Of a stretch of 30,525 nucleotides of DNA, positions 11,222 through 29,058 are shown in pieces (the stretch's first letter is position 1; each line of letters opens with the position of its first letter). Both the position numbers and the translations under genes were made by a program. The DNA lies in NCBI GenBank assembly GCA_044359315.1, contig JBIKMK010000001.1:1-30525 (forward strand). Reading direction: 5' to 3'. The stretch is from Bryobacteraceae bacterium (GTDB lineage Bacteria; Acidobacteriota; Terriglobia; Bryobacterales; Bryobacteraceae). The notes under the pieces were generated by a model. That model had not been told where the DNA came from. It ran no database searches and saw nothing but the letters and a program-made list of their open reading frames with translations.

Positions 11222-11265
11222 GCCTCCCTCAGGGCCGGCTCTAAGGTTTTCGCTTCAACCCTCCG

Positions 11266-11539: not shown

Positions 11540-11586
11540 CCGGGCGGTTCCGACGGAGAAGTACTGGCGGACACCTGGAATCGACT

Positions 11587-12560: not shown

Positions 12561-12591
12561 TGACGAATTCGAATAAGGCCAGGAGCAAGCC

Positions 12592-12861
12592 ATGACCCCG
12601 GAAAGTTCGGCGGAGTTAATCCGTCAGGCATTGATGACCACCTTCTGGCTGAGCCTGCCGTTGCTGGCCGTGGGCTTTGTCGCGGGAATCGTCATCAGCT
12701 TGCTCCAGATTGTCACCTCTATTCAGGACCCCGGCTTTGGTACGGTGCCCCGCCTGGCGGCGTTTCTGGGCGCGATGTTGTTCTTCCTGCCCATGATCCT
12801 GCGCGTGCTGATGACCTACACCACCAAGCTGTTGGGGGACTTTACGCCGTATGCCCGCTGA
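12592..12861 (+). CDS. fliQ: Flagellar export gate protein FliQ
   Basis: MTPE....LIRQAL.....LSLPLLAVGFVAGIVISLLQIVTSIQDP....VPRL. Confidence 0.95.
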   Translation: MTPESSAELIRQALMTTFWLSLPLLAVGFVAGIVISLLQIVTSIQDPGFGTVPRLAAFLGAMLFFLPMILRVLMTYTTKLLGDFTPYAR

Positions 12862-13678
12862 CGCCGCCGCTGCCAGTGACGTGCTATCCCGCAGTGTCGG
12901 CATTGGCCTGCCCGTGGTGCAAGGCTTTGCGTTGGTGCTGGCGCGGGTGGCCGGGCTCTTCTCGTTTGCCTCGCTGCCGGGCGGACGCAGCCTGGTGGAC
13001 TTGGGCAAAGTGGTTTTCTCGCTCTCGCTGACCATTGCCCTCTATCCGTTCTGGCCGAAGCTGGAAGCAACCAATGACCCTTGGAAGCTGGCGCTCTGGG
13101 TGCTGGCCGAGGCGGCGATGGGCCTGACGATGGGATTGCTGGTGGCCCTGGCGCAGGAGTGTCTGACCTTCGCGATGCAACTGATCGCCACCCAGGCCGG
13201 CTACAGCTACGCCACCTCCATCGACCCGAACTCACAGGCCGATTCGGGCGTGTTTCCCGTGATCGGCCAGTTGTTTGCGGGGCTGCTGTTTTTTGCCTTG
13301 GGCCTGGACCGGCACATCGTCAGCGCCCTGGCGGTGAGCTTGCAGACGATGCCTCCGGGCATGATTACCCAAACTGATCTGCGGGCCCCGGCTGAGTCGA
13401 TTCTGAAGTTGTTCAGCGGTGTATTTGTCACTGGTGTGAGACTGTCACTGCCGGTGGTGGCTTTGCTGCTGATTCTGGATCTCTCCCTGGCGCTGATGGG
13501 GCGCCTGAATGCGCAGCTCCAACTGTTGACCGTGGCCTTTCCGGCCAAGATGCTGCTGTCGCTGGTGATCGTTGCCATCTGCGCGCCGGCCATGGCGATA
13601 GTGTTCGAAAAGCAGGCGCAGCAGGCCATCGAGACGCTGCAGCAGTTTGTCCATCCACCGCCCCGGGTGGCGCGATGA
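12851..13678 (+). CDS. fliR: Flagellar export gate protein FliR
   Basis: F.LVLARVAGLF...G..LIATQAGYSYATSIDPNS...LSLPVVALLLILDLSLALMGRL.AQLQLL.VAFPAK; multi-TM. Confidence 0.93.
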   Translation: MPADAAAASDVLSRSVGIGLPVVQGFALVLARVAGLFSFASLPGGRSLVDLGKVVFSLSLTIALYPFWPKLEATNDPWKLALWVLAEAAMGLTMGLLVALAQECLTFAMQLIATQAGYSYATSIDPNSQADSGVFPVIGQLFAGLLFFALGLDRHIVSALAVSLQTMPPGMITQTDLRAPAESILKLFSGVFVTGVRLSLPVVALLLILDLSLALMGRLNAQLQLLTVAFPAKMLLSLVIVAICAPAMAIVFEKQAQQAIETLQQFVHPPPRVAR

Positions 13679-13738
13679 CCACGATGGTGCCCACCGGTTT
13701 TGCCAGCCGGCCCTCGATCCTGACTCTTCCTGGAAACC

Positions 13739-14815
13739 ATGTCCGACGCCTCCCAACGCACCGAAAAACCAACTCCCCAAAAGCTGGAGAAGGCGCGCAA
13801 GGAGGGCCGGTTTGCGGTCAGCCGCGAGGCGTTGTCCGCCACCACGTTTACAGTCTCCATCTGGCTGATCATCAGCTATCTGCCCGCCTGGCTGGCCGAC
13901 ATGGAGAAGCTGTGGCGTTTCCTGCTGCAACAAGCTTTTGCCTCCGACTTAAGTTGGCGGGGGGCACTGCGGTTGTGGGAGATGATCATCACCCAGAACT
14001 TTCTGCCGTTGCTGGCCGCTGGCGCGGGCGTGGCGATCGCGGGTCTGGGCATCCAGATGGCGATGACCGGGTTTGGCTTTGCCGGCTCCAAGCTGGCGCC
14101 GGACTTCAGCCGGCTGAACCCGTTGCCCAAGATCAAAGAGATGCCCTCGCAGAACATGGGGCAGCTGATGCAGGCGCTGGCCATGCTGACCATCTTTGGC
14201 GCGGTGGTTTGGGTGCAGATGAGCGGATGGATTCCGTCGCTGGTCCGGCTACCACTGCAGCAATTGCCGACGGCACTGAGGGAGATCGCCGAAACCGTCC
14301 AGGACTTGTTGAAGAAGGCCATCCTGGTCTTCGCGCTGCTGGGGGCGGCGGACTTCATCCGGCAAAAGATGAAGTTCGACAAGGAAATGCGGATGTCGAA
14401 GCAGGAGATCCGCGACGAAATCAAGGAGTCGGAAGGCAGTCCGCAGATGAAGCAGCGGATCCGGCGACTGCAGCGCGACGCCGCCCGGCGCCGCATGATG
14501 CAGGAAGTACCCAAGGCCACGGCCGTGATCGTCAACCCGACGCACTACGCCGTGGCCATCCGGTTCGACATGCAGGCCATGGCCGCACCGGTGGTGGTGG
14601 CCAAGGGCAAAAACTACTTAGCCCGACGCATACGCGAAATTGCCATCGCGAACGAGGTACCTATCGTAGAGAATCCGCCGCTGGCCCGGTCACTGTACAA
14701 GAGTGTCGACGTGGGCCGCGAAATCCCGGCGACGCTGTACCGGGCGGTGGCCGAAATTCTGGCCTACATTTTCCGTTTGTCGCAGGCCCAGCGCGGGCCG
14801 CGGAGGTCACGCTGA
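13739..14815 (+). CDS. flhB: Flagellar export substrate-specificity switch FlhB
   Basis: RTEKPTPQKLEKARKEG...MSKQEIRDEIKESEGSPQMK...intact autocleavage motif NPTH...VPIVENPPLARSLY. Confidence 0.97.
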   Translation: MSDASQRTEKPTPQKLEKARKEGRFAVSREALSATTFTVSIWLIISYLPAWLADMEKLWRFLLQQAFASDLSWRGALRLWEMIITQNFLPLLAAGAGVAIAGLGIQMAMTGFGFAGSKLAPDFSRLNPLPKIKEMPSQNMGQLMQALAMLTIFGAVVWVQMSGWIPSLVRLPLQQLPTALREIAETVQDLLKKAILVFALLGAADFIRQKMKFDKEMRMSKQEIRDEIKESEGSPQMKQRIRRLQRDAARRRMMQEVPKATAVIVNPTHYAVAIRFDMQAMAAPVVVAKGKNYLARRIREIAIANEVPIVENPPLARSLYKSVDVGREIPATLYRAVAEILAYIFRLSQAQRGPRRSR

Positions 14816-14841
14816 TGTTCAAGGAAAGGAGAGTCTGCTAA

Positions 14842-16917
14842 ATGGCCACGCCAGCCACGGCATCGGGCAAACTGCCACTGACAGCCAAGGAGATCTCCTG
14901 GGGCGACCTCGCCGTCCCGCTGACCGTGCTGGGCATCGTGATGGCGATGATCGTGCCGTTGCCGTCGGTGCTGATCGATCTGCTGATCTCGGCCAACATT
15001 GCCATCTCGGTGGTGGTGCTACTGGTGGCGTTGTACATCACCAAGCCGGTCGAATTCAGCGTCTTCCCTACGACCCTGCTGTTGTTGACCCTGTTCCGGC
15101 TGGCACTGAACATCTCTTCTTCGCGCCTGATCCTGCTGGACGGCATGAAAGGCACGGCGGCGGCGGGACATGTCATCGATGCGTTCGGCAACTTTGTCGT
15201 GGGCGGCAACTTCATCATCGGTCTCGTCATCTTCCTGGTGCTGATCGCCATCCAGTATGTGGTCATCAACCATGGCGCGGTGCGCATTTCAGAAGTCACG
15301 GCGCGCTTCACCCTGGACGCCTTGCCCGGCAAACAGATGTCGATCGACGCGGACTTGAACGCCGGCTTGATCGACGAAAGCGAAGCCCGTATCCGGCGCC
15401 GAGCATTGGCGGCGGAAGCGGAATTCTACGGCGCCATGGATGGTGCGTCCCGTTTCACCCAGCGAGACGCGGTGGCGGGCATTCTGATTACGGCCATCAA
15501 TATCATCGCCGGCTTCTTGATTGGCGTCCTGCAGCACGGCATGGACATCAACAAGGCCCTGAAGACCTATACCGTGCTGACCATCGGCGATGGTCTGGTC
15601 ACTGTGATTCCGGCGCTGATGATCTCCATTTCGGGTGGCCTGATTGTTACCCGCGCGGGTGCGGACACACAGTTGGCGGGCGAGTTCCGCAAGCAGGTGT
15701 TTGGGGCAGCGGAGCCCATCTATCTGGCCGCCGCGGTCCTGGTGGCCATTGCGATGGTGCCCGGCCTGCCGAAGATTCCATTTCTGGCCTTGAGTGGCGG
15801 CCTGGCCTACATGGCCCGGAGTCTCACCCGCAAGGCGGCGGATGCCGAAGCGCAGAAGCCGGCGGCGGCATCGTCCACCCAAGCGGCCAAAGACACGCCG
15901 GAATCGATGCTGAAGGTGGAGCCGGTGTCGGTGGAAGTGGGCTTGGGCCTGGTGAAGTTAGTGGAAGGTGGAGCGAATTCGCCGCTGCTGCGTCGGATTG
16001 CGGGCATCCGCAAGCAACTGGCGGCCGATCTGGGCTTTGTCCTGCCCGCCGTGCGCGTCACCGACAATCTGGGCCTGCGGGCCCGGGAGTACTCCGTCCT
16101 GCTGAAGGGCGTCGAAATTGCCCGATACGAGTTGCCGGCGGGATGTGAACTTGCGCTCGCGCCCGGCGGCCGGCGGGCGGCTTCGATTGAAGGCATGCCC
16201 GCCAAGGAGCCGGCGTTTGGTCTCGATGCTCTCTGGATTCCCGCTGCCTCGGCCGACGCCGCGCGCGAGGCGGGCTACACCGTGGTGGACCCGGTCAGCG
16301 TGCTGGCCACTCACTTTGCCGAACTGGTCCGGCGGCACGCGCACGAACTGTTTGGACGGCAGGATGCCAAGAAGCTGCTGGACCGGGTGGCGGAGGAGAA
16401 CCCCCGGGTGGTGGAGGATCTGGTGCCGAAGCTGCTGAGCTTGGCCACGGTCCAGAAGGTCATGCAGAACCTGCTGCGGGAGCGGGTGACGATCCGGGAT
16501 GCGGTCTCGATTCTAGAGGCGTTGGGCGAGGCGGCGCAGATCTCGCACAACCCCATCCTGCTGACCGAATACGTCCGGCAAGCGATCCGGCGGGCGGTGG
16601 TGCGGCCCTATCTAAGCGGCCAGGATCTCCGGGCCTGGTTCCTGGAGCCTAGCGTGGAGCAGGCGTTTGAAGGGGCGGTGGAGCACGGCGAGCACTCTTC
16701 GCACCTAAACCTGCCGCCGCAGCGGATCCGGGATTTGGTGGACCGCCTAACCTCCATCGCCGGACCAGCCGATGCTTCCACTGTGCTGATTACCGGAATG
16801 CAGGCCCGTCCATTCATCCGATTGATTGCGGAACCGAGTCTGCCGGGTCTGGTGGTGTTATCGCCCAATGAACTGCCGCCCGGGGTGCGGCTGATCTCGA
16901 ACGGAACGGTAGGTTGA
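14842..16917 (+). CDS. flhA: Flagellar export ATPase-docking protein FlhA
   Basis: FSVFPTTLLLLTLFRLALNISSSRLIL, RISEVTARFTLDALPGKQMSIDADLNAG, FYGAMDGASRF; SD AAGGAG. Confidence 0.98.
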   Translation: MATPATASGKLPLTAKEISWGDLAVPLTVLGIVMAMIVPLPSVLIDLLISANIAISVVVLLVALYITKPVEFSVFPTTLLLLTLFRLALNISSSRLILLDGMKGTAAAGHVIDAFGNFVVGGNFIIGLVIFLVLIAIQYVVINHGAVRISEVTARFTLDALPGKQMSIDADLNAGLIDESEARIRRRALAAEAEFYGAMDGASRFTQRDAVAGILITAINIIAGFLIGVLQHGMDINKALKTYTVLTIGDGLVTVIPALMISISGGLIVTRAGADTQLAGEFRKQVFGAAEPIYLAAAVLVAIAMVPGLPKIPFLALSGGLAYMARSLTRKAADAEAQKPAAASSTQAAKDTPESMLKVEPVSVEVGLGLVKLVEGGANSPLLRRIAGIRKQLAADLGFVLPAVRVTDNLGLRAREYSVLLKGVEIARYELPAGCELALAPGGRRAASIEGMPAKEPAFGLDALWIPAASADAAREAGYTVVDPVSVLATHFAELVRRHAHELFGRQDAKKLLDRVAEENPRVVEDLVPKLLSLATVQKVMQNLLRERVTIRDAVSILEALGEAAQISHNPILLTEYVRQAIRRAVVRPYLSGQDLRAWFLEPSVEQAFEGAVEHGEHSSHLNLPPQRIRDLVDRLTSIAGPADASTVLITGMQARPFIRLIAEPSLPGLVVLSPNELPPGVRLISNGTVG

Positions 16918-16960
16918 GCGGATCGAGTAGCCGCCGCGGCCCCCGCCAAGGAGCAGTCTG

Positions 16961-17968
16961 ATGCGCATCAAGTCATATTTTTCGGCAACGGTTGAAGCCG
17001 CCGTCTCTAAGGCCCGTCAGGAACTGGGCGATGACGCACTGTTGCTGAATGCCCGGCCCTCACCCGATGATGCACTGCATCTGGGCGCGTACGAAGTTGT
17101 CTTCGGTATCGAAACACCCGTTGTGCCGCCTCCCGCGCCACCCACGGCACGCGCTGAGCGGCCTGCCGCCCCGCCACCGGCCCCGCTGCCCGATCCCGCC
17201 ATCGATGACCCGGACAGCCTGGCCGGATTCCTGGCGCGTCAGGACATCTCGCCCGCCTTGATTCAGGCCATCGAAACCAGCCTGGATGACGACACCGTGA
17301 CGGAGCAACAGCTGATCCGGGCGCTGTCGCGGAGGTTGAACGTCAATTCGTCGCTGAACGGCCCCATCGCCTTTGTGGGCCCGCCGGGTAGCGGCAAAAC
17401 CACTTTGCTGGTGAAGCTGGCGATCCGGGAGTCAGCTGACCAGGCCGTGACGGTGGTGTGTGCGGATTCGCAACGGATTGCTGCCGCGGAGCAACTGCGG
17501 ACGCTGTGTTCGATCGCCGGTCTGACATTTGAGTACGCCGGGGAGCCCGAAACGCTGGCCCCTATCGTCGACGCGCATCACGCCGCCGGACGGCTGGTAC
17601 TGATTGATCTACCAGGGTTTGGGCCTTCAGAACTAGGGCCGGCCAGGGCTTGGCAGGCGGCGCTGGCGAAAATTTCTTCACTAACCCCGGTTTTAACCTT
17701 AACGGCAACCGCCCGCACTGCCGATCTAAGGGGTATGGTGGGGCACTACCGGATGTTCAAGCCCCAACGGCTGGCATTCACCCATCTGGATGAGACCGGT
17801 ATCTGGGGTGGTGTGTACAGTGCGGCCGGGGAGACAGGTTGGCCAGTGGGTTGGCTGACTACCGGGCAATCGATTCCCGAGGATGTCGAAGACGCCTCGG
17901 TACGGCGCATCGTGGACGGTCTGATGGGGTTGGCAGGCAAGGCACGGGCGGCGGCAGCAGCAGGATAG
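16961..17968 (+). CDS. flhF: SRP-family GTPase FlhF
   Basis: MRIKSYF.A.VE.A...ARQELG.DALLL N-terminus; P-loop GPPGSGKTT; DLPG; THLDE; GWLTTGQSIPEDVE. Confidence 0.9.
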   Translation: MRIKSYFSATVEAAVSKARQELGDDALLLNARPSPDDALHLGAYEVVFGIETPVVPPPAPPTARAERPAAPPPAPLPDPAIDDPDSLAGFLARQDISPALIQAIETSLDDDTVTEQQLIRALSRRLNVNSSLNGPIAFVGPPGSGKTTLLVKLAIRESADQAVTVVCADSQRIAAAEQLRTLCSIAGLTFEYAGEPETLAPIVDAHHAAGRLVLIDLPGFGPSELGPARAWQAALAKISSLTPVLTLTATARTADLRGMVGHYRMFKPQRLAFTHLDETGIWGGVYSAAGETGWPVGWLTTGQSIPEDVEDASVRRIVDGLMGLAGKARAAAAAG

Positions 17969-17970
17969 AC

Positions 17971-18753
17971 ATGAGTAAACGGTATGGCACAGCAACGGCA
18001 ACGGAGACCGAAAGCGGCGAACGCGAACGGCTGATCCTGGAGCACATGCCTCAGGTGCGGCTGATCGCGCGGCGCATCCATGAGCGGTTGCCGGAAAGCG
18101 TCAGCCTGGAAGACCTCATCTCTACCGGCGTCATTGGTCTGATCTCAGCCATTGACCGTTTTGACCCTGGCCACAACGTGAAACTGAAGACCTACGCCGA
18201 ATACAAGATCCGCGGGGCTATTCTCGACAGCCTCCGGGGCCTGGACTGGGCACCCCGCCAACAGCGCAAACGCGCCAAGCAGATCGAGGCCGCCATCGGC
18301 CTGCTGGAACAGAGCTTTAAGCGGCAACCCACCGAAGATGAGATCGCCGCCGAGTTGAAGATCGAGATCGTCGAGTACCGCGAATGGCTGCTTGATTCCC
18401 GCAGCGTCAATATCGGCAGCCTGGAAAGCAGCGCCCCGGAAGAAGAAGGCCGTGACCTGCTGAAGTTCATCTCCGACAAGGAGGAGAACTGGCCCAACCG
18501 CCTGCTGGAGCGTTCCGAACTGGAACGGCTACTGGCCGAGGCGATCGAGAAGATGCCGCAAATTGAGCGCACCGTCTTGAGCTTCTACTATCACGAAGAG
18601 CTCACCTTGCGCGAGATTGCCCGCATCGTCGATCTCCATGAGTCACGCATCTCGCAGCTGAAGTCACAGGCGATCCTTCGCCTCCGCGCTTACATCGAGA
18701 AGCGCTGGCCGATGATGAAAGGCAGCCCCCCCGCGGGTGGGCGTAAACGCTAG
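17971..18753 (+). CDS. fliA: Flagellar RNA polymerase sigma factor FliA (sigma28/WhiG family)
   Basis: RERLILEH.P.VR.IA.RI...EDLIS.GVIGLI.AIDRFDP...KLKTYAEYKIRGAILDSLR.LDW.PR...YY.EELTLREIA....LHESRISQL.SQA; ATG 17971 just after the flhF stop. Confidence 0.96.
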   Translation: MSKRYGTATATETESGERERLILEHMPQVRLIARRIHERLPESVSLEDLISTGVIGLISAIDRFDPGHNVKLKTYAEYKIRGAILDSLRGLDWAPRQQRKRAKQIEAAIGLLEQSFKRQPTEDEIAAELKIEIVEYREWLLDSRSVNIGSLESSAPEEEGRDLLKFISDKEENWPNRLLERSELERLLAEAIEKMPQIERTVLSFYYHEELTLREIARIVDLHESRISQLKSQAILRLRAYIEKRWPMMKGSPPAGGRKR

Positions 18754-18759
18754 GTCAAC

Positions 18760-19623
18760 GTGTCCGAGCTTGCCTCACATAACGAACTGATCAGCTGGCT
18801 CCGCACCCGTTTTGAGGAGAAGCTGGCCGACGTCATCGATTCGATGACTGGCGAACGGCCCACCATCACGGCGGTGGAAGCCAGCGAACCACTGGAGCGG
18901 GACGCCTCAGCCGTCGCCTGGTTGACCCCTGTGTCACTGGGTCCGGAAGCGGGCCTCGCCACCGTGTTCCCCATGGAAACGTGGCGGGCGATCGGACAGA
19001 AAGCACTCGAAGCCGTCGGCATTGAAGACGGTGACGACGACAGCATCCGCGGCACGTTCCTGGAAATTCAGAGCCAGGCCCTCACCTCCGTCCTATGGGA
19101 TTTGGGCCAGCGAGCGAAGGTAGAGATCAGCATGGAATCCGGCCGCGCGCTGGAGCCCACCGATACCTTCGACTTCCAGCGGTTCCAGTTGCAGAACGGT
19201 TCGCCATTCGAGTTTGGCGTGTCCAGCGCCTTGGTGGACCAGGTGATCTCCATCGCCAGCGAGGCCGAGAAGCCTCGCGAAGCCCGGGCGGCTGCGGCCA
19301 GTAGCTCCGGTGGTGCCAGCACCACTCGCGCCGAATCGACGGATTCGGCCGCCTCCGGGCCCGCCTCTACGCTCGATCTGCTGCTGGATGTGGAGTTGCC
19401 GGTCAGTGTCTCCTTTGGCCGGGCCCAGGTGCCGCTGAAAGACGTGCTGAAACTCACCTCCGGCTCCATTGTGGAACTCAACCGGACGGTGGCCGAACCC
19501 GTCGAAATCATCGTCAACAATTGTGTGATCGCCCGCGGCGAAGTGGTCGTCGTCGAGGGCAACTACGGCATCCGTATCCAGGAAATCATCAGCCGCGCGG
19601 AGCGGCTACGGACACTCAACTGA
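18760..19623 (+). CDS. FliY-like switch protein: divergent N-terminal domain plus C-terminal FliN (SpoA) domain
   Basis: C-terminal LDLLLDVELPVSVSFGRAQVPLKDVLKLTSGSIVELNRTVAEPVEIIVNN.VIARGEVVVVEGNYGIRI is FliN-type; the ~190-aa N-terminal part plus linker occupies the position of the CheC-like domain of FliY. Confidence 0.8.
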   Translation: MSELASHNELISWLRTRFEEKLADVIDSMTGERPTITAVEASEPLERDASAVAWLTPVSLGPEAGLATVFPMETWRAIGQKALEAVGIEDGDDDSIRGTFLEIQSQALTSVLWDLGQRAKVEISMESGRALEPTDTFDFQRFQLQNGSPFEFGVSSALVDQVISIASEAEKPREARAAAASSSGGASTTRAESTDSAASGPASTLDLLLDVELPVSVSFGRAQVPLKDVLKLTSGSIVELNRTVAEPVEIIVNNCVIARGEVVVVEGNYGIRIQEIISRAERLRTLN

Positions 19624-19990: not shown

Positions 19991-21157
19991 TTAGCCCTTG
20001 TACCAGATGCGCCAGATCTTGTTGTTGCCGTCTTCCGACACCAGCATGCTGCCATCAGCCAACTGCAGCAGGCCCACCGGGCGGCCCCAGACTTCCTTGT
20101 CATCCGGTCCCATCATCCAGCCGGACAGAAACTCTTCGGGCGGCCCTGCGGGCTTGCCGCCCTTGAAGGGCACAAACACCACGGAGTAACCGACCCGTTT
20201 GGCGCGATTGGAGGAACCGCGATAGGCCAGAAATGCGCCATTGCGGTACTTGGCGGGGAACTTCTTGCTGGAGCTGAAGATGAAATCCATCACGGCGGCG
20301 TGGGCTGGAAGGATCACGTCAGGCACCACCGTCTTGGCCACCAGTTCCGGCGCCTCACCTTTGCGGCGAGGCTCTTCGTTGGGCCCGATGTAGGCATAGG
20401 GCCAGCCGTAGAAGGCGCCCGGCTTGATCTCGGTGAAGAAGTCCGGCACCAGATCGTCACCCAACCCATCGCGCTCCTGCACGGTAGACCACAGCTTGCC
20501 GGATTCAGGATTCATCCGGATCGACACCGGATTCCGCAGACCACCGGCCATCACGGAGTGGCCGGAACCGTCCGGGTTATAGACGTTAACGGCCGCGCGA
20601 TCCTTCGGGTCGCCGGGATCCACATTGGAGGCCGAACCGACCGAGACATAAAGCTTCTCGCCCTTCTTGTCGAACGCCAGGCCGCGCGTCCAGTGGCCCT
20701 TGCCGTAGCCCTTCAGCGGCACAATCTCTTCCGCCGCGCCCACGGTGACCGCTTTGGCGTCCAACTTATAACGTTTGATCGCCTGGGCTTCGGCGACGTA
20801 GAGGTAGTCTTTCCACAGCGCCATGCCGAACGGCCGGTCCAGGCCCGAAATCAGCTTCTTGGGGGCCGAGCCAGGCGTCACCACCAGCACCGACCCGTCG
20901 GCGACGCTCTCGGTGACCAGCACCGGCCCGCCAGGCACTTCCAACATAAAGCGCGGCTTCGTGAAGCCACTGGCGAACTCCTCAGCCACAAACCCAGCGG
21001 GCAACTTCAACTGACGATCGGCCGGTTTGGCCACCACTTTCGCCGGATTGCTAGCCGAGGGCGTGGCGTTGGGGGGCGGCAGGGTGATCTTGGGACTCTG
21101 CGCGACGGCGGCCACGGCCAGAATGGCCAACAGGAGGAAACGGATGGAGTTCATCAT
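19991..21157 (-). CDS. Secreted PQQ-dependent sugar/L-sorbosone dehydrogenase family beta-propeller protein
   Basis: Signal peptide; LKLPAGF.AEEFASG..KPR, PFGMA, HWTR.LAF, GLRNPV, ERDGLGDDLVPD, FYGWPYAY, FLSGW....VWGRPVGL.QLADGS.LVSED.N..IWRI.Y. Confidence 0.88.
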   Translation of the reverse strand: MMNSIRFLLLAILAVAAVAQSPKITLPPPNATPSASNPAKVVAKPADRQLKLPAGFVAEEFASGFTKPRFMLEVPGGPVLVTESVADGSVLVVTPGSAPKKLISGLDRPFGMALWKDYLYVAEAQAIKRYKLDAKAVTVGAAEEIVPLKGYGKGHWTRGLAFDKKGEKLYVSVGSASNVDPGDPKDRAAVNVYNPDGSGHSVMAGGLRNPVSIRMNPESGKLWSTVQERDGLGDDLVPDFFTEIKPGAFYGWPYAYIGPNEEPRRKGEAPELVAKTVVPDVILPAHAAVMDFIFSSSKKFPAKYRNGAFLAYRGSSNRAKRVGYSVVFVPFKGGKPAGPPEEFLSGWMMGPDDKEVWGRPVGLLQLADGSMLVSEDGNNKIWRIWYKG

Positions 21158-21336
21158 TGCAGTTCTGGCTTATGAGTCTATCATCGGCCCCAGCCCTTCC
21201 GGCAACTGGTTGCTGCCCTTTTCCGGCGGCGGGCCGCACCGCGCGGACAAAAGTAATTTGTGAGAATCTGATCATGTTGAATGGATCTGCCATCGGCGCT
21301 TGATGCGGGATGGCCACCGCTCGGTCTCTGCCCCAA

Positions 21337-23670
21337 ATGATCGGCCAACTCTTATCTCACTACCGGATCGAGCGTGAGTTGGGGCGCGGTGGCATGGGCG
21401 TGGTTTATCTGGCTTTCGACGAGCGTTTGCAGCGCCGGGTGGCCCTTAAGTTGCTGTTGCCAAGCTCCGTTGACCGGCCTGATCGCCCCCGCCGCTTCGA
21501 GCGCGAAGCACTGAGCGCCGCGGCAGTGAATCATCCCAACATCGTGCATATCTATGAGGTGGGGGAGCATGAAGGCGCTTGCTTCCTGGCGATGGAATAT
21601 GTCGAGGGCGAAAGCCTGCGCCAGCGGATCGCCCGTGGACCGCTGCCCGTTCCCGAGATTCGGCGTTTGGGCGCACAGATGGCGGATGCGTTGCGGGCGG
21701 CTCATCAAGCGGGGATCCTCCATCGCGATATCAAACCGGAAAACATTCTCCTGACGGCCCAGGGTGATGCCAAGTTGATGGACTTTGGCTTGGCGCGCCT
21801 GCAGAAGCCCGACGGACCGATCTCTGACGACACGATCACACTGCTCACCATGCACGGCCAAGTGGTGGGCACACCGAATTATATGAGCCCGGAACAGGCT
21901 CTGGGCCGCGACATCGACGCCCGTTCCGATCTGTTCTCCCTCGGTGCGGTGCTGTACGAAATGGCTACCGGAAAGCCCGCCTTTGCCGCGCGTTCCGTGT
22001 TCGAGACGATGGAACGGGTGGTGAGGATACAGCCGGTGATGCCGCCGATCGGCGATCTGGCCACCGTGATCGGCCGCTGCTTGGCCAAAAACCGGGATCA
22101 GCGCTATGCCTCGGCTTCCGCTCTGTGGCAGGAACTCCGCTCCGACGGCTCCAGTGCATTCACTCCTCACCTGCCGCTGCCCGAGTTTCCGTCCGTCCCG
22201 GCACCAGCCACCACGGTGGTTTCCACGCGCCGCCGCTGGCTGGCGGGGGCGGCCTTGGGGACCACTGCCGTGGTTGGCGGGACCATCTATTGGCGCCAGC
22301 GGCCCGAACCAATCCGCTCGCTGGCGGTACTACCATTTTCTGGCCCACCGGAACTCGACTACCTGAACGAAGGCATGGCGGAGCTGATGGTGGCGGACCT
22401 GACCCAGCTTTCGTCCATCCGTGTGGTCCCGCTTTCAGTGGCGCGCCGCGCAGTAAAGCCTGGTCTCAGCCCGTCCGCCATTGGCGCAGCCCTGGGGGCC
22501 GATGCGGTGCTTCGCGGCGAGCTGTCGGCGCGCACTGGCGGCTTTGACCTGAGGGTGCAACTGTTCCTGTCCAACCGTGGTTCGGTCGCTTGGTCCGGTC
22601 GCCACCAGGGCTCTGCCAAACAACCGGAGTTGGTGCTGGCGGAGGTGCTGCAGCAGTTGGTGCCGCGGCTGTCGCCGGAGGGCCGGGTAGTGGCCGGCGG
22701 CGGACCCCGGATCACGTCCGATGCCTACCGGCTTTACGTCAAGGGCCGTTATCATCTGGACCTCCGCAGCCTGGACGACCTCAAGGCCGCCGCCGGCCTG
22801 TTTCAGCAATCGATCGAGCGGGACCGCAATTATGCCCCTGCCTATGCGGGCTTGGCGAATGCTTACACCCTCCTGACGGTCTACGGCAGTCAAGCCCCCA
22901 CCGCGTTCCTCAAGCAAGCCCTCCAAATGGCCCATCAGGCCGTGCTGCTTGACGGCCGGAACGCGGAAGCACTGATTTCCCGGGCCTTTGCCCGCACGAT
23001 TTCCCTTTACGAGTGGGCCGAAGCCGAACAGGACTACCGTCAAGCACTGACCATTGATCCCGAAAATGCCGGTGCTCACCGCTGGCTGGGGGCCAGTGTC
23101 CTGGCGCCTCAGGGCCGCCATGAAGAAGCCTTGATCGAACTGCAGCGCGCCGTGGATTTGGAACCATCCCCGGTGAACCGCACGATGTTGGCGACGGGTC
23201 ATTATTTCGCTCGCCGGTATGACCGGGCGATCCAGGCGCTGCGATCGGTGGAGCCACTATTCGCCTCCTTGCCCCAGGCCGCAACCACCATGGCCCTGGC
23301 GCTGTTGGCCAGTAAGCGGGCACCCGAGGCGGTTGCGCTACTGGAGGCGTTGCCCGGTAGCCGGGATCCCGCGGCCCACGCCGCACCCTTTCTGGCCTAT
23401 GCCTGGATAGTGGCCGGACGTGCGGCCGCGGGGGCACAACTGGCCCGCGCCATCGATGAGGGAGCTCAGTACGTGTTTCTTTCTCCCGTTTCACGTTCCT
23501 ATACGTGGCTGGCCTTGGGCCAAACCGGCCGGGCTTTGGGCCTGATGGAAGAAGGCATTGGATTACGGGATGTGCAATCCATTTTCCTGAAGGCCGACAC
23601 TCGCTCCGATGGCCTGCTTTCACTGCCCCGGTTTCGTGCCGCGCTGTCCCGGATGAGGCTTGACAGATAG
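21337..23670 (+). CDS. Hanks-type Ser/Thr protein kinase with putative TM segment, TolB-N-like domain and TPR repeats
   Basis: LGRGGMGVVY, VALK, HRDIKPENIL, DFGLA, GTPNYMSPEQ, DLFSLG; RRRW followed by a hydrophobic stretch; SLAVLPF; TPR helices (AYRLYVKGRY, YAPAYAGLANAY, AEQDYRQAL.IDP). ATG 21337 preferred over 21310. Confidence 0.92.
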   Translation: MIGQLLSHYRIERELGRGGMGVVYLAFDERLQRRVALKLLLPSSVDRPDRPRRFEREALSAAAVNHPNIVHIYEVGEHEGACFLAMEYVEGESLRQRIARGPLPVPEIRRLGAQMADALRAAHQAGILHRDIKPENILLTAQGDAKLMDFGLARLQKPDGPISDDTITLLTMHGQVVGTPNYMSPEQALGRDIDARSDLFSLGAVLYEMATGKPAFAARSVFETMERVVRIQPVMPPIGDLATVIGRCLAKNRDQRYASASALWQELRSDGSSAFTPHLPLPEFPSVPAPATTVVSTRRRWLAGAALGTTAVVGGTIYWRQRPEPIRSLAVLPFSGPPELDYLNEGMAELMVADLTQLSSIRVVPLSVARRAVKPGLSPSAIGAALGADAVLRGELSARTGGFDLRVQLFLSNRGSVAWSGRHQGSAKQPELVLAEVLQQLVPRLSPEGRVVAGGGPRITSDAYRLYVKGRYHLDLRSLDDLKAAAGLFQQSIERDRNYAPAYAGLANAYTLLTVYGSQAPTAFLKQALQMAHQAVLLDGRNAEALISRAFARTISLYEWAEAEQDYRQALTIDPENAGAHRWLGASVLAPQGRHEEALIELQRAVDLEPSPVNRTMLATGHYFARRYDRAIQALRSVEPLFASLPQAATTMALALLASKRAPEAVALLEALPGSRDPAAHAAPFLAYAWIVAGRAAAGAQLARAIDEGAQYVFLSPVSRSYTWLALGQTGRALGLMEEGIGLRDVQSIFLKADTRSDGLLSLPRFRAALSRMRLDR

Positions 23671-23697
23671 CTCTAGACCACTTACACTCGCAGACCT

Positions 23698-23964
23698 ATG
23701 GAAAACGAACCACTCCTCTCGCAAATTGGACTCTCTCAGGCCGAGGCCAACGACTTGGTGACCAAGTTCACCAGTTTTTACTACTCCCTGAGTGCAGCGC
23801 AGAAAGCGGTATTCGATGCCGGCCGCCCTTCGCTGAGCGCCGCGCAAGCCGCCGCGGCACTTGGAGCGGGGGTCTCGGTGGATGACCTCCATGGTTTCGT
23901 CTCGTCCGTCACCGGCCAGCCGGGAGCATCCGCCAGTTTCTTGTTAACCAGTCCCCAACCGTGA
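23698..23964 (+). CDS. 88-aa putative RiPP precursor / YcaO-TfuA substrate
   Basis: Fills the kinase-ycaO gap; its TGA overlaps the ycaO GTG (GTGA, 23961-23964); amphipathic helical N-terminal region, Ser/Gly/Ala-rich C-terminus, 13 Ser + 4 Thr, no Cys. Function is inferred from context. Confidence 0.6.
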   Translation: MENEPLLSQIGLSQAEANDLVTKFTSFYYSLSAAQKAVFDAGRPSLSAAQAAAALGAGVSVDDLHGFVSSVTGQPGASASFLLTSPQP

Positions 23965-25262
23965 GTTGGTTTTCGCCCGCGCCTAAACATTCAATTTACT
24001 CGCAACGCGTTATGTCGGCGGCGGAAACCATCCGCCGCATACGGCCTTGGGCGGAAGACTTGGGCGTGACACGGCTGGCGGACATCACCGGATTGGACCG
24101 TTTGGGCCTGCCCACTTACAGTGCGGTGGTCCCAGATTCACGCGATATCATTTCGGTCTACAACGGCAAAGGGCTCCGCCGCGTTGATGCTCAAGCCGGA
24201 GCCTTGATGGAAGCCGTCGAGAGGCAGTCCGCGCTCCGGTGCCGCCCTCCATGGGTGACAGATTCCTATTCGAATAGAGCCGCCGCCGGTGACACTTTAG
24301 ATGTCCGCCGATTGGCTGTCCGCTTACGGCCGGATTATTCAGACGACGCCCTGGGTGAATGGGTGGTGGGCCACCGAGTCGCTGATGGTTCCCCGGTGAT
24401 GGTCCCGGCTGGCGTGGCTGGTTATTTGTGGACGGACCTGCCTCATACATCGCCGGTGGGTTGGGCGAGTTCCAATGGCTTGGCCTCCGGCAACTGTCTT
24501 GAAGAGGCCGTGGCTCATGCCTTGTGCGAGCTGATCGAGCGGGATGCCTGGACCCTGGCAGAACTGGCCAGCCAATGGCTGCCACGCGCCCTCCGTGTGC
24601 GCGCACTCGGCAAGCTGGGCCAGGCGGGACCCGATGATATGGAGCGCTACGCCACCCTGGACATTACCACCGCGCCCCCCGTCACCCGGGCCATCGCCGA
24701 ACGGTTCCACCGCGCCGGACTGCCTCTCCGTGTTCGCCATATCACCTCCGATCTCGGTATCCCCACGTTTGTCGCTGTTACTGCGGAGTGGGTGTTCCCG
24801 GCCTTTCCCCAGGCGCACTTTGGCCTCGGCACTCATCCCAACGCCGAAGTGGCCTTGGTGCGCGCCCTGGTGGAGGTGGCGCAATCTCGTGCCGTCGACA
24901 TCCAAGCTGTCCGCGAGGACATCGTGCTGGCCGGCGATACCGAGACCCAGGGAGCCATCCACACCCGGCGCGCGGCCACCGTTGATACCTCCAGTTGGTT
25001 GCACAACGATTCCTCGCGGCCGGTGGCCTTTTCCGCTATCCCTACTCATCTGTCGACCGATGTCCTGGATGACATACGGTTCATGATGCAGCAACTGCGG
25101 GCCCATGGCTTGACTGAGGTCATCGTGGTGGACCTTACGCCAACGGGCGCTCCGTTCTCGGTGGTGCGCGTCGTCGTGCCCGGCTTAGAATCGTGGGGAG
25201 CGGACCATGGAAAAATCGGGGAACGGGCCACCACCTTCTGGTGCCATGAGCAGCTCCGCTAA
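23961..25262 (+). CDS. ycaO: YcaO-family ATP-dependent backbone-activating enzyme, TfuA-associated (thioamide-forming) type
   Basis: GVTRLADITGLDRLGLP, SVYNGKG, MEAVER, SSNGLASGN, ELIERDA, ALVRALVEVAQSR...I.A.RED, VVRVVVPGLE; no C-terminal PxP motif of azoline-forming YcaOs. Confidence 0.95.
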   Translation: MSWFSPAPKHSIYSQRVMSAAETIRRIRPWAEDLGVTRLADITGLDRLGLPTYSAVVPDSRDIISVYNGKGLRRVDAQAGALMEAVERQSALRCRPPWVTDSYSNRAAAGDTLDVRRLAVRLRPDYSDDALGEWVVGHRVADGSPVMVPAGVAGYLWTDLPHTSPVGWASSNGLASGNCLEEAVAHALCELIERDAWTLAELASQWLPRALRVRALGKLGQAGPDDMERYATLDITTAPPVTRAIAERFHRAGLPLRVRHITSDLGIPTFVAVTAEWVFPAFPQAHFGLGTHPNAEVALVRALVEVAQSRAVDIQAVREDIVLAGDTETQGAIHTRRAATVDTSSWLHNDSSRPVAFSAIPTHLSTDVLDDIRFMMQQLRAHGLTEVIVVDLTPTGAPFSVVRVVVPGLESWGADHGKIGERATTFWCHEQLR

Positions 25263-25899
25263 GACCGCTGTGTTTCTGGGGCCCAGCCTCCGGCAAACCG
25301 AGGCGGCCGCCCTGTTGCCTGGGGCACTGATCCTTCCTCCGATCAAACGTCACGACCTGGCGCGGGCCATTGAAACCTTCGCCCTCACCCGCGTCGGGAT
25401 CATTGACGGTGAGTTTTTCCAAAGTCTCGCCATCTCACCCAAAGAAGTGGTGGCCGCGCTCCGTCAGGGCTGCCAGATCTACGGAGCTTCCAGCATGGGC
25501 GCCCTCCGCGCGGCGGAAACCTGGTCACTGGGAACGGTTGGTGTCGGACGAATTTTTGAGCTTTACCGCTCCGGCGTGATCGAAGGTGATGATGAAGTGG
25601 CGGTCACCTATTGCCCGGAGACCTACCGGCCACAGTCCGAGGCTCTGGCTAGCCTGCGGCTGGCTCTGGCCGACGCAGTCCAGGCGGGCGCGGTGTCTTC
25701 CCGGATGGCGACCCGCTTGGTGGCCCGTTTACGGCGGGCTTACTTCCCCGACCGGAGCCGCCAGCGATTGCTCCTGGAGGCCCGCCAACTCGCTCCGACA
25801 GAAGAACTTGCCGCTCTTCGCCAGTTCCTGGACTCCTGTCCGGACGCCAAAGCGCAGGATGCCCGGCTGTTGTTAGGCCGCCTGCAGGCAGACCCCTGA
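25246..25899 (+). CDS. tfuA: TfuA-like protein (partner of thioamide-forming YcaO)
   Basis: VFLGPSL, LPPIKRHDL, GIIDGEF, KEV..AL..G..IYGASSMGALRAAE, GVGRIFE.YRSG..EGDDEVAV; ATG 25246 overlaps the ycaO end by 17 nt. Confidence 0.93.
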   Translation: MSSSAKTAVFLGPSLRQTEAAALLPGALILPPIKRHDLARAIETFALTRVGIIDGEFFQSLAISPKEVVAALRQGCQIYGASSMGALRAAETWSLGTVGVGRIFELYRSGVIEGDDEVAVTYCPETYRPQSEALASLRLALADAVQAGAVSSRMATRLVARLRRAYFPDRSRQRLLLEARQLAPTEELAALRQFLDSCPDAKAQDARLLLGRLQADP

Positions 25900-26053
25900 C
25901 GGCCCCCGGCATCTCTTGCTTGGCTTGCACAACTTCCGTTCGAACGATCAATGGTGTACATTAGCCTCACACAGGGATGGCGGGTTTGAAGTTCTGCTGA
26001 TTGGGGTGACGTGCCGGAAGGCCCGGTTCTTGTGAATGCTTCTGGAGGGTTTT

Positions 26054-27421
26054 ATGAGTACTTTGTCCACTTCACGGGCTGGCCGGACCGGCCGCCTTAT
26101 CTCACTTGCTGCGTTAGCCTTGATTGGCGCCGGCTCTCTGTTGGGCCGTACAGCGGGCCCACCCACTGAGCGCACCGGCGCTGGGGTCGATGGCGGAACC
26201 AACTGCACCGCGTGCCATCGGGGCGCGCTGGCCAATGCCGACCAACGCGGCCGTATCGCCATTGATGCCGCCTCATACCGGCCGGGCGTGAAACAAATGG
26301 TTCGGGTGACGGTGGAACATCCCGATGCCCTGCGGTGGGGCTTCCAGTTGATTGCCCGGTACGCGAGCGGCGAGACGCGGCAGGCGGGTTCATTTACTCC
26401 CAACGCTCAGACGCGCGTCGTTTGCGGCACGGCCGGTACGGCCGCCCCTTGCAATGGCGAACGTGAGTTTGCCTCACATACGGCCGCGGCCACGGTGCTC
26501 GGTTCCAATGGCCGGATGGCCTTCGAAGTAGAGTGGACGCCCCCGGCCGAAGATGTTGGTGACGTCACGTTTTACGCCGCCGGCATTGCCGCCAACAACG
26601 GCGGGGGCAACACCGGAGACATGGTCTACACCACGTCCACCGTCATCCGCAATGGTGCCGGTTGCGCGCTGGAAACTCCCACCATTCGCGAAGTCTCCAA
26701 CTCAGCTTCTGGCGCTCCGAACATGGCGTTCAATGGGCTGACCTCGATTTACGGGGCCAACTTCAGCCCCACGGGCCGCGCCCGTTCTGTCACGCAGGCG
26801 GAGGTCCGCTTGCTCGCGTTCCCCAAACAGATGGATTGCGTCACGGTACTGGTCAACGGCCGGCCGGCGCCGATCACCTATGCCGGAAGCGGACAGATCA
26901 ACTTCCAGGCTCCGTTTGATCAGTTGAATGCCTCCACCGTGCAAGTGGTGGTGAATCGCGGCCTGGCGAATGAACGTGCCAGCGCGGCGTTTAGCTCGAC
27001 CATCAACCAGCTGCAGCCGGCGCTGTTCACGTTCAATGGAAGCAGCGTTGCCGCCATTGGGCCGGATGGCACGACGCGCGTGGCGCAGCCGTCGGTGGTT
27101 CCGGGTGCCCGACCAGCCAAGCCGGGCGACGTGGTTTCGATCTTCGCCACCGGGTTGGGTGTCACGAATCCCGCTTGGGACTCCGGTGACATTGCGCGCA
27201 ATGCCTCGCCACTTCAAGTTCCGGTCTCGGTGGAAGTGGGCGGCATGACGGTGCCGGCCGCGGACATCCTCTACCAGGGCGCGGCGGTGCAGGCCATTTC
27301 GGGTCTCTATCAGGTGAACGTGCGGCTTCCGATGGGTCTCGGAGCCGGCGATCAGACGCTGGTGATCCGCCAGTCTGGCTTGGCTTCCCAAGCCGGAGTA
27401 ACGATCCCCATCGTTCCGTAA
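26054..27421 (+). CDS. Secreted protein: Reeler-like (choice-of-anchor V type) domain with CxxCH motif plus Solibacter-type C-terminal IPT/TIG (TIGR03437-like) domain
   Basis: Signal-like N-terminus; GPP..RTGA...CTACH...Y.PG....V.V....WGFQL...FEVEWTPPA..VG.VTFYAAG.AAN; then VSNSAS...SIYG.N...VLVNG.PAP..YA...QINFQ.P...QPALFT...PAKPGDVVSIFATGLG...GLYQVNV..P. SD GGAGG before ATG 26054. Family names recalled, not searched. Confidence 0.75.
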   Translation: MSTLSTSRAGRTGRLISLAALALIGAGSLLGRTAGPPTERTGAGVDGGTNCTACHRGALANADQRGRIAIDAASYRPGVKQMVRVTVEHPDALRWGFQLIARYASGETRQAGSFTPNAQTRVVCGTAGTAAPCNGEREFASHTAAATVLGSNGRMAFEVEWTPPAEDVGDVTFYAAGIAANNGGGNTGDMVYTTSTVIRNGAGCALETPTIREVSNSASGAPNMAFNGLTSIYGANFSPTGRARSVTQAEVRLLAFPKQMDCVTVLVNGRPAPITYAGSGQINFQAPFDQLNASTVQVVVNRGLANERASAAFSSTINQLQPALFTFNGSSVAAIGPDGTTRVAQPSVVPGARPAKPGDVVSIFATGLGVTNPAWDSGDIARNASPLQVPVSVEVGGMTVPAADILYQGAAVQAISGLYQVNVRLPMGLGAGDQTLVIRQSGLASQAGVTIPIVP

Positions 27422-27432
27422 GTACAGAACAA

Positions 27433-27478
27433 GAAAAAAGGGGGAGGTGCCATCGCGGCATCCTCCCCCTTTTCTGTT
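27433..27478. terminator. Bidirectional intrinsic terminator between convergent genes
   Basis: AAAAAA-GGGGGAGG-TGCC-ATCGC-GGCA-T-CCTCCCCC-TTTTCTGTTT: GC stem with A-tract before and T-tract after. Confidence 0.9.
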
Positions 27479-27498
27479 TGTTGACGCCTTCCGCGGCG

Positions 27499-29058
27499 TT
27501 ATAGCAGTTTTTCCGCGATCGACTTGGGCTGCACAAACTGCAGCAGGTAGTCCGGGCCGCCGGCCTTAGAATCAGTTCCGCTCATGTTGAAGCCACCAAA
27601 TGGGTTGGCCCCCACCATGGCACCGGTGCACTTGCGATTGATGTAGAGATTGCCGACAAAGAACTGCTCGCGGGCTTTGCGAATCTTTTCCGGGTTGCGA
27701 GTGTAGGCTGCGCCTGTCAGCCCGTACTCGGAATCGTTCGCCAGTTCCAGAGCATGATCGAAGTCGCGGGCCTTGGTGACGGCCAGCACCGGTCCAAAGA
27801 TCTCTTCCTGGAAGAGCCGGTCGGTGGATTCGATGTCGGCGATGATGGTGGGCTGGATAAAGTAGCCTTCGCCTTCGGCCGCTTCGCCGCCCGTGATCAG
27901 GCGGCCTTCCTGCTTGCCCACTTCGATGTAGTCGAGAATCGACTTCTTCGCCCCGGCATTGATCACCGGGCCCATGTAGTACTGCGGATCGTCGGCGGGG
28001 CCTTGCGTCAGCTGCTCGGCGCGCTCCTTAATGCGCCCAATCAAGTCGTCGTAGACCGGCTCATCGATGATCAGCCGTGAACAGGCCGAGCACTTCTGCC
28101 CTTGGAAACCGAACGCCGCAGCGACGATACCCTGGGCGGCGGCGTCCAGGTCCGCATCGCGGTCCACGATGATGGCATCCTTGCCACCCATCTCGGCGAC
28201 AACCCGCTTGATCCACTTCTGCCCGGGCTGTGTTTTGGCCGCCAGTTCATTGATCCGCAGGCCGACTTCTTTCGATCCCGTAAAGGAGATGAAGCGCGTC
28301 TTGGGGTGGGCCACCAGCAGGTCGCCAATGGCGGAGCCGGAGCCGGGCAGCAACGTGAAGGCGCGCTCCGGGAAGCCCGCTTCCGTCAGCACTTCCATAA
28401 ACTTCGCGGCGATCGTGGGCGTGTCACTCGACGGCTTGATCACCACCGTGTTGCCGGTCACCAGCGAAGCCACGGCCATGCCCACCAGAATGGCCAGCGG
28501 GAAGTTCCACGGCGGCACAACGATGCCGACGCCCAGCGGCAGGTAGACCAGCACGCCTTCTTCGCCCGGCATCTGCACCAACGGCTCCGGGGAATCTAGC
28601 TTCGCCATCTGGCGGGCGTAGTAGGCCATAAAGTCGATCGCTTCGCAAACGTCGGCTTCGGCCTCATTCCAGTTCTTGCCCGACTCCACGACCAGCCAAG
28701 CGTTGAACTCATCCTTGCGCCGGCGCAAAATCTCGACGGCGCGGTTGGTGGTGGCAATGCGGTGCGAGGCGGGGGTGCGGCTCCACTCCTTGAAGTAAGC
28801 GAAAGCCGTTTCCACTGCCTGGTTTGCCATGTCGACGGTCGCCTTTTGGTGGACGCCGACAATCTCCGATGGCCGTGACGGGTTCACGGAGCGGATCTTG
28901 TCATCAGTGAAAAACTCATCGCGCCCGATGCGCAGCGGATACTCGCGGCCCAAGTCCTCGCGGACCTTGGCCAGGGCAGCTTCCATCGCCTGGCGGTGGA
29001 CGGGTTGCGAGAAGTCGCGAAAGGACTCGTTAACAAATGGCGGCAGAGAGATGCTCAT
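27499..29058 (-). CDS. pruA: L-glutamate gamma-semialdehyde (1-pyrroline-5-carboxylate) dehydrogenase, monofunctional
   Basis: F.NE.F.DFS, EA.ADVCEAIDF..YYA, PPWNFPLAI, FTGS.EVG, AEMGGKD, FGFQGQKCSACSR, EEIFGP, GNLYINRKCTGA.VG..PFGGFNMSGTDSKAGGPDYL; ATG 29058 with SD AGGAG. Confidence 0.93.
   Translation of the reverse strand: MSISLPPFVNESFRDFSQPVHRQAMEAALAKVREDLGREYPLRIGRDEFFTDDKIRSVNPSRPSEIVGVHQKATVDMANQAVETAFAYFKEWSRTPASHRIATTNRAVEILRRRKDEFNAWLVVESGKNWNEAEADVCEAIDFMAYYARQMAKLDSPEPLVQMPGEEGVLVYLPLGVGIVVPPWNFPLAILVGMAVASLVTGNTVVIKPSSDTPTIAAKFMEVLTEAGFPERAFTLLPGSGSAIGDLLVAHPKTRFISFTGSKEVGLRINELAAKTQPGQKWIKRVVAEMGGKDAIIVDRDADLDAAAQGIVAAAFGFQGQKCSACSRLIIDEPVYDDLIGRIKERAEQLTQGPADDPQYYMGPVINAGAKKSILDYIEVGKQEGRLITGGEAAEGEGYFIQPTIIADIESTDRLFQEEIFGPVLAVTKARDFDHALELANDSEYGLTGAAYTRNPEKIRKAREQFFVGNLYINRKCTGAMVGANPFGGFNMSGTDSKAGGPDYLLQFVQPKSIAEKLL

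Follow-up and report, generated by a model that had tools for sequence, protein, structure and literature searches.

To our knowledge, only a few ribosomal products bear thioamides, namely, the thioamitides, the thiovarsolins, some thiopeptides, McrA, and uL16. We also know of almost no characterized natural products from the Acidobacteriota, an abundant phylum of soil and freshwater. A YcaO phosphorylates or adenylates a backbone amide oxygen by means of ATP and, in TfuA systems, attack by sulfide then yields the thioamide (PMC5589413; PMC13063428). TfuA works with a thiocarboxylated carrier of the ThiS type, according to the discussion section of one of them, which cites Liu et al. 2021 (PMC13063428). 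In this study, we followed up a stretch of 30,525 nucleotides (nt), referred to here as the window (contig JBIKMK010000001.1, positions 1 to 30,525 of the forward strand; assembly GCA_044359315.1). An earlier note on this DNA, the original prediction, had proposed an Acidobacteria-like host and a minimal cluster of three genes encoding a precursor peptide, a YcaO, and a TfuA. The host was recognized correctly, as it belongs to the Acidobacteriota, family Bryobacteraceae. The number of genes has to be revised to four because a Ser/Thr kinase gene directly upstream is co-inherited with the other three. This cassette resembles a TfuA-YcaO thioamide system in its predicted way of working but belongs to no named one. 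We consider it probable that it makes a backbone-thioamidated peptide or small protein, with the tail of the small precursor as the substrate; this and all other statements on function are drawn from sequence and gene context.

The best-scoring models and structures for both enzymes of the cassette are those of the pair responsible for thioglycine in McrA (TIGR03266 and NF033432; 6PE3/6PEU and 6XP8; PMC5589413), which consists of the same two enzymes encoded in the same order. The cassette YcaO, 433 amino acids (aa) when counted from GTG 23961, is encoded at positions 23961 to 25262 on the forward strand, as is the rest of the cassette. It matches PF02624 over its full length (1e-67; 229 bits; profile positions 1 to 325 of 325), and its best NCBIfam model is TIGR03266, for McrA-glycine thioamidation (246.5 bits against a cutoff of 365). 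The TfuA, 217 aa counted from ATG 25246 (25246 to 25899), matches PF07812 in the same manner (2.6e-37; 127.7 bits; positions 1 to 119 of 119) and scores 190.5 bits with NF033432, for which the cutoff is 235.2. Thus, both proteins stay under the equivalog cutoffs of the McrA pair. The best solved relative of the YcaO is MJ1094 of Methanocaldococcus jannaschii (6PE3; E value of 3.6e-41), with which its ATP/Mg motifs MEAxER, ELIERDAW, and EVAQSRA align, and its C terminus is devoid of PxPxP. Similarly, the TfuA matches the solved TfuA 6XP8 at 1e-35. The original prediction of a YcaO with intact ATP-binding motifs and no PxP tail, followed by a tfuA gene, was therefore accurate.

Methanogen YcaOs are the next-nearest relatives of the cassette YcaO, with identities of 29 to 37%, and form its sister clade. 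However, the cassette adds to the McrA-type pair a dedicated small gene with a variable tail, directly upstream of ycaO, and a linked kinase gene. No homologue of the small open reading frame (ORF) was found among the 35 loci by which methanogens are represented in the YcaO tree or in any other archaeal locus scanned. McrA itself (PF02249) gave no match in the host genome, an assembly of 4.56 Mb in 769 contigs that is 86.5% complete, while the controls matched in two methanogens. The same assembly, with the same completeness, contains a single YcaO gene.

Thioamitide loci such as those for thioviridamide and thiostreptamide S4 (PMC8120280, PMC6511847) likewise have a precursor gene, with a conserved N-terminal and a variable C-terminal part, beside ycaO-tfuA. 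Indeed, antiSMASH would label the cassette locus "thioamitides." The thioviridamide precursor model NF033415 did not match the window protein, and its matches to 3 of 141 family members (E value of 0.036) are noise. The original prediction that the small protein is unlike thioviridamide-type precursors was hence borne out, and no known precursor family was recognized among the 141 members. It had also listed the kinase, HopA1, and decarboxylase tailoring genes as absent. This holds for the thioamitide-type functions, as no phosphotransferase/HopA1-like lyase, Cys decarboxylase, or methyltransferase was found among the window ORFs or in the cassette flanks of the other loci, but it overlooked the gene for a Hanks-type Ser/Thr kinase, which stops 27 nt short of the small ORF. 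The protein it encodes is of the membrane receptor type and not a tailoring enzyme of the aminoglycoside phosphotransferase (APH) type. Moreover, in comparison with thioamitide loci, the cassette locus has no protease or exporter gene, and the putative leader of its precursor is a folded domain, about 70 aa long, that belongs to an unnamed family.

The thiovarsolins (var cluster of Streptomyces varsoviensis; PMC6511847) derive from a small TfuA-YcaO cluster whose precursor has repeated core units. Some members of the cassette family have tandem repeat cores as well (P0006, P0031, and L098), whereas the tail in the window is single-copy; the phylum is a different one, and so, it appears, is the precursor family. 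Two further kinds of system are alike in concept: Nif11/NHLP precursors combine a long leader derived from a folded domain with a variable core in YcaO clusters, and the kinase/cyclase fusion of thiazole/oxazole-modified microcin (TOMM) systems (TIGR03903) is a signaling kinase encoded near a YcaO. However, these systems make azolines and not thioamides. Models of the PF07862, TIGR03798, and TIGR03793 type gave no match above noise in the 141 members (an NHLP-clan model hit 2 of 141 at an E value of 0.17), and the cassette kinase scored 162 bits against the TIGR03903 cutoff of 705, through its kinase domain only and with no cyclase part. The E. coli-type YcaO, which acts on uL16 (PMC13063428), also thioamidates the backbone of a folded protein. 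It is highly conserved and has neither a TfuA nor a substrate gene beside it, while the cassette has a TfuA; the window YcaO reached 34.9 bits with the corresponding model, NF040716, against a cutoff of 700.

A global survey of TfuA clusters touches on the Acidobacteria only in passing and makes no mention of a kinase, and environmental biosynthetic gene cluster surveys offer only antiSMASH "thioamitides" counts. No description of the cassette was found in the literature searched, which is not proof of novelty. Three features appear to be new, namely, the precursor family, in which the leader is folded, the separate clade formed by its YcaOs, and the receptor kinase that is conserved as their partner.

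The small ORF starts with ATG 23698, stops with a TGA that ends at 23964, and encodes a protein of 88 aa with no Cys and a pI of 4.4. It overlaps ycaO by 4 nt (GTGA) when the GTG at 23961 is taken as the YcaO start, and ycaO, which stops with TAA at 25260 to 25262, overlaps tfuA by 17 nt from ATG 25246. The three overlapping genes and the Cys-free 88-aa product are thus as originally predicted, and the ycaO/tfuA overlap recurs at other loci. ATG 24012 is a possible alternative start for YcaO, since its homologues align only from about residue 15. A longer form of tfuA is also open from ATG 25207; the start at 25246 is likelier because homologues align from about residues 15 to 20 of the long form.

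When the 88-aa sequence was used in a word-seeded search of 5.8 billion proteins, nothing but the query itself was returned. A six-frame search of relatives identified homologues with 41% and 30% identity in G002 and G009, which besides the window's genome are the only ones in the genus to have the YcaO, and in both the homologue is located directly upstream of its gene. A profile built from these three sequences was then searched against 1.84 billion representative proteins, yielding 189 clusters at an E value of ≤1e-3 and 61 at ≤1e-10 (metagenome-derived clusters at 50% identity), nearly all of 83 to 110 aa. The small ORF is thus a real gene and not a chance ORF, judged by its conservation at the protein level in 189 representative clusters. 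A Shine-Dalgarno (SD)-like motif is present 5 to 12 nt upstream of 45 of 48 distinct homologue starts. Database copies carry the name "hypothetical protein," for example, WP_158789685.1 of Granulicella sp. L46, and in a Pfam/NCBIfam scan of 141 members, no model scored above noise, those for Nif11, NHLP, and the thioviridamide precursor included.

Conservation across the family extends over about 66 N-terminal residues and falls to background level after that. For the window protein, AlphaFold2 (with an alignment of 141 sequences) modeled five helices across residues 4 to 72. The mean predicted local distance difference test (pLDDT) score was 83, with values of about 90 across residues 10 to 70 and low confidence for the last 16 residues. 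The head, or putative leader, comprises residues 1 to 72 (23698 to 23913), and the hypervariable tail, the putative core and modification site, comprises residues 73 to 88 (23914 to 23964, stop codon included). In fold searches with the model, no entry of PDB, AFDB clusters, or the ESM Atlas exceeded a template modeling (TM) score of 0.5. Two other roles for the small protein were considered and rejected. It is not a transmembrane or secreted protein, given a maximum 19-residue hydropathy of 1.0 and no N-terminal signal, and a ThiS-like sulfur carrier is ruled out by hypervariable C termini with no conserved C-terminal Gly-Gly.

The arrangement of the small ORF was evaluated by scanning 80 genome loci with YcaO relatives, together with loci from genome and metagenome look-ups, using a hidden Markov model of the small protein and tblastn with the kinase, YcaO, and TfuA. 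The window's type of YcaO (roughly 42 to 56% identity) was represented by 51 nonredundant loci, tfuA being directly downstream of ycaO in all of them and the small ORF directly upstream in 47; because related genomes are not independent, these counts overstate statistical support. The small-protein profile matched six of 401 genomes sampled at class level, once each and always directly upstream of an adjoining ycaO. The small ORF was never found away from ycaO in the loci and genomes scanned. Conservation of the ORF and its linkage to ycaO-tfuA had been set beforehand as a check on the original prediction, and homologues were encountered only directly upstream of ycaO-tfuA. The order Pkinase/TPR, small ORF, YcaO, TfuA was observed in all four metagenome look-ups with enough context, in unrelated flanks (e.g., MraZ, arginase, beta-oxidation genes, and YceI), and two further look-ups on contigs of <2 kb were compatible with it. 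Two of the 47 loci have tandem copies of the small ORF (L072:4242-4984 and L108:4344-4984), with both copies following the kinase gene and preceding ycaO; the tails encoded by the copies are similar without being identical and have an SSCNGA motif in common.

The cassette is rare and patchy. It was present in 3 of 10 species genomes of the genus, including that of the window, and in about 1 to 1.5% of sampled class and phylum genomes. Named carriers include the isolates Granulicella sp. L46 and Acidobacteriaceae bacterium KBS 83, in addition to many metagenome-assembled genomes (MAGs) from Acidobacteriaceae, Bryocella, Terriglobus, Terracidiphilus, Bryobacteraceae, and Solibacteraceae. Two records labeled "uncultured Verrucomicrobiae," L085 (OY970299.1) and L077 (OY970344.1), contain an Acidobacteriaceae-type cassette. 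OY970299.1 was placed in the window's class by genome search, and both labels look wrong.

The relationships of the cassette YcaO were assessed in a maximum likelihood tree of 90 YcaOs (IQ-TREE quick search), with support given by the Shimodaira-Hasegawa-like approximate likelihood ratio test (SH-aLRT) and with four distant Acidobacteriota YcaO-TfuA pairs as the root. The 47 small-ORF-linked YcaOs form one clade (SH-aLRT of 98), restricted to Acidobacteriota, which splits roughly into Bryobacteraceae and Acidobacteriaceae groups, and the window YcaO is at its base on a long branch (0.63). Immediately outside this clade are four bacterial loci that have other genes upstream. The bacterial group as a whole (47 plus four; support of 98) is sister to the archaeal McrA-type YcaOs (support of 99). 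Placement of the enzyme by phylogeny was a second check on the original prediction, and, within the set sampled, the YcaO was found in a clade of its own and not among enzymes with a known different substrate. Since this set covered the best 80 matches to the query and not TvaH, VarY, or EcYcaO, the position of the clade within the YcaOs as a whole does not follow from the tree.

The loci just outside the clade (L091, L095, L096, and L111) were rejected as examples of the cassette, as were the distant Acidobacteriota YcaO-TfuA loci L047 to L050: both sets are different cluster types with other neighbors and no small ORF of the family. Three of the former (L091:266-1579, L111:3661-4992, and L095:112-2178) are from MAGs labeled Archangium, Actinomycetes, and Clostridia. 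Directly upstream of their ycaO genes are large ORFs of about 440 aa or 688 aa, which may represent different types of substrate or partner.

In addition to its linkage, the small ORF shows the general layout of a precursor of a ribosomally synthesized and posttranslationally modified peptide (RiPP), with an apparent conserved leader and a variable core encoded beside the modifying enzyme. The window tail has a short hydrophobic patch, SFLLT, between Gly/Pro/Ser-rich flanks. Across 191 members, tails vary in sequence and in length, from 17 to 84 aa when counted from the last conserved family position, which is a few residues before the window tail start (residue 73). A typical tail consists of a hydrophobic patch of 5 to 8 residues, often with Cys, followed by a polar, acidic, basic, or Pro-rich end. 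Sub-family motifs and tandem repeat cores are found as well, for example, with 8 copies of an FPAPV unit. The repeat-tail members L059:4123-4560 (P0006), P0031, P0028, and L098:4600-4947, in which the units are about 8 copies of A-x-FPAPV-x-A, TPVP or GLPIP repeats, and AVQPAAAA repeats, look like multi-core precursors. No conserved cleavage motif was evident in the family tails.

The tail is also the part of the cassette that diverges fastest, followed by the leader and then YcaO. For YcaO pairs with 85 to 91% identity, the corresponding values were about 55 to 65% for the leader and about 50% for the tail, and at a YcaO identity of about 65%, they were 40% and 19%, respectively. Fast divergence of enzyme and substrate is described as the pattern for RiPP-associated YcaOs, unlike that for YcaOs with a fixed protein substrate (PMC13063428). 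The fast, tail-biased divergence in the cassette matches the RiPP-associated pattern. Within the genus, the window proteins compared with those of G002 and G009 were about 50% (YcaO), 36 to 40% (kinase), and 30 to 41% (small protein) identical. This unusually high divergence suggests either fast evolution or separate acquisitions.

The first gene of the cassette (21310 to 23670) encodes a Hanks-type Ser/Thr kinase of 786 aa (Pkinase 4.7e-49 plus TPR families). Its catalytic domain is N-terminal and has intact HRD and DFG motifs at residues 138 and 158, respectively. A single membrane-spanning segment, weak in the window copy and clear at the same position in orthologues, precedes the C-terminal ectodomain, which is about 460 aa long and contains TPR repeats. 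Full-length orthologues with 36 to 40% identity are encoded directly upstream of the small ORF in G002 and G009, and an orthologue occupies this position in 44 of the 47 loci. Kinase paralogues are numerous in Acidobacteriota, with 18 matches in the window's genome. In five genomes from two families, the cassette-linked kinase was the best match to the window ectodomain (182 to 240 bits), and the best other kinase reached ≤142 bits (123 in the window's own genome). Because the cassette-linked copy is the best ectodomain match in each genome despite the many paralogues, the kinase is judged to be co-inherited with the cassette and not a chance neighbor. It is not strictly required for the enzymatic core, since three Terracidiphilus-type loci keep the other three genes. 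At these loci (L101, L102, and L103, all from MAGs), no kinase gene is upstream of the small ORF; L101, the one examined in detail, has a 592-aa membrane protein encoded on the opposite strand at the kinase's place. As the three group in one sub-clade, the kinase seems to have been lost only once.

We hypothesize that the helical head of about 70 aa acts as a recognition handle. The YcaO, together with ATP, would activate at least one backbone amide carbonyl within the hydrophobic patch of the tail, and TfuA would bring sulfide from a thiocarboxylate of the ThiS type, the gene for which is elsewhere in the genome, resulting in a thioamide in the tail. Thioamide chemistry is supported because TfuA is always adjacent, the best scores are to McrA thioglycine models, and the clade is sister to the methanogen enzymes. 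A sulfur-carrier gene was absent from the window, as predicted originally, and two ThiS-family genes are present elsewhere in the host genome. Several observations weigh against this proposal. Protease and exporter genes were also found to be lacking from the window, again in agreement with the original prediction (domain scans of the window ORFs with Pfam/NCBIfam), and from the cassette, so that a released, secreted peptide is not supported. Because no residue of the window tail is conserved across the family, the site of modification cannot be pinpointed. Leader peptides do not typically have a folded head of about 70 aa, and the small protein could be a partner and not the substrate. Neither the window's own small ORF start nor that of a genus-mate has an SD-like motif. 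Finally, two RNA-library runs gave only two short contigs, both inside the kinase gene, at 95 to 99% identity.

The absence of a linked protease or exporter and of a signal peptide favors a product that stays inside the cell or one that relies on housekeeping functions encoded elsewhere. A possible explanation, although one we hold to be rather less probable than not, is therefore that the 88-aa protein remains uncleaved in the cell and that a thioamide tunes its tail. It would then be a protein substrate like McrA or uL16, acting with the cytoplasmic kinase domain or phosphorylated by it. The confidently modeled fold of the head, an N terminus that is neither hydrophobic nor a signal peptide, the lack of protease and exporter in more than 45 cassettes, and a YcaO clade nearest the protein-modifying McrA enzymes are all consistent with this. 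Moreover, YcaOs that act on folded proteins are established (PMC13063428), and the E. coli-type enzyme provides a precedent for an uncleaved small protein. On the other hand, hypervariable and tandem-repeated tails and the fast divergence of enzyme and substrate correspond to what is described for RiPP-associated YcaOs and not for those with a fixed protein substrate (PMC13063428).

The co-inherited kinase raises the question of what the thioamidated tail would do. Three roles are conceivable for the kinase, as a regulator of the cassette, as an enzyme that phosphorylates one of the cassette products, or as a sensor of the product, and gene linkage alone cannot separate them. As an extension of the proposed thioamidation of the tail, which we regard as unlikely in this specific form, the modified tail, either released or still attached, might be a specific ligand, substrate, or regulator of the kinase, with the four genes as a self-contained circuit and the tail as its specificity determinant. 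If true, this would be the first link between thioamide modification and Hanks-kinase signaling, with thioamidation serving signaling and not as an antibiotic trait. A narrower version, in which the modified tail peptide is exported and bound as a strain-specific signal by the periplasmic TPR ectodomain of the kinase, seems quite improbable. The orthologous kinase directly upstream in 44 of 47 cassettes, its single membrane span followed by a large TPR ectodomain, and the variable tails, which would suit signal specificity, are in line with it, yet the cassette has no exporter, protease, or signal peptide, and the three Terracidiphilus-type cassettes dispense with the kinase; in addition, linkage by itself cannot tell sensing from regulation. 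It is very unlikely that the small protein is an accessory (a recognition or scaffold subunit or a kinase regulator) of a YcaO-TfuA pair that modifies another protein, as would fit the folded head, the lack of a conserved modification site in the tail, and the existence of YcaOs with distant protein substrates, since an accessory would be expected to co-evolve slowly, yet this protein evolves fastest, with variability concentrated in the disordered tail, its gene occupies the classical place of a precursor, directly upstream and translationally coupled, and a cassette found in about 1 to 2% of sampled class and phylum genomes argues against a housekeeping target.

With thioamidation of the tail as the preferred reading, the cassette adds a well-populated candidate substrate family without an existing database model, comprising the 189 clusters with a folded leader domain. 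It is a tractable system because it is very small and self-contained and because two strains that carry it, Granulicella sp. L46 and Acidobacteriaceae bacterium KBS 83, are in culture. Questions that it could serve include how TfuA-type YcaOs recognize their substrates, what a peptide or protein gains from a thioamide, and for what reason the receptor kinase is retained with the enzymes.

Regarding expression signals, a promoter-like site (TTGACA, 17 nt, TACACT; 23660 to 23688, forward strand) spans the stop codon of the kinase gene, with its end 10 nt ahead of the small ORF. It is a consensus match only and a weak lead: the scan gave 3 sites versus 1.1 ± 1.2 in shuffled sequences, and a partial check recovered a comparable site at 1 of 17 homologous loci. 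An Rfam search of positions 20000 to 27500 gave no match. At one Acidobacteriaceae cassette (L061:4054-5171), genes for an extracytoplasmic function (ECF) sigma factor and a 145-aa protein are just upstream of the kinase gene, an arrangement that may constitute a further regulatory layer.

The locus is present in many lake-water DNA sequencing runs. Other genes in the window include a flagellar cluster, a sugar dehydrogenase, a Solibacter-type secreted protein, an aldehyde dehydrogenase, and a metallo-beta-lactamase-fold protein. The flagellar cluster (7455 to 19623), in the upstream half of the window and outside the cassette, encodes FlgE, FliP, a FliR-type export protein, FlhA, an FlhF-like GTPase, and FliN, as well as a sigma-70-family factor that is likely FliA. 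The ORF at 26036 to 27421 encodes the secreted-type protein, with a choice-of-anchor V domain and a Solibacter-specific C-terminal domain (TIGR03437, 2.3e-47), and is a useful taxonomic marker of the host.

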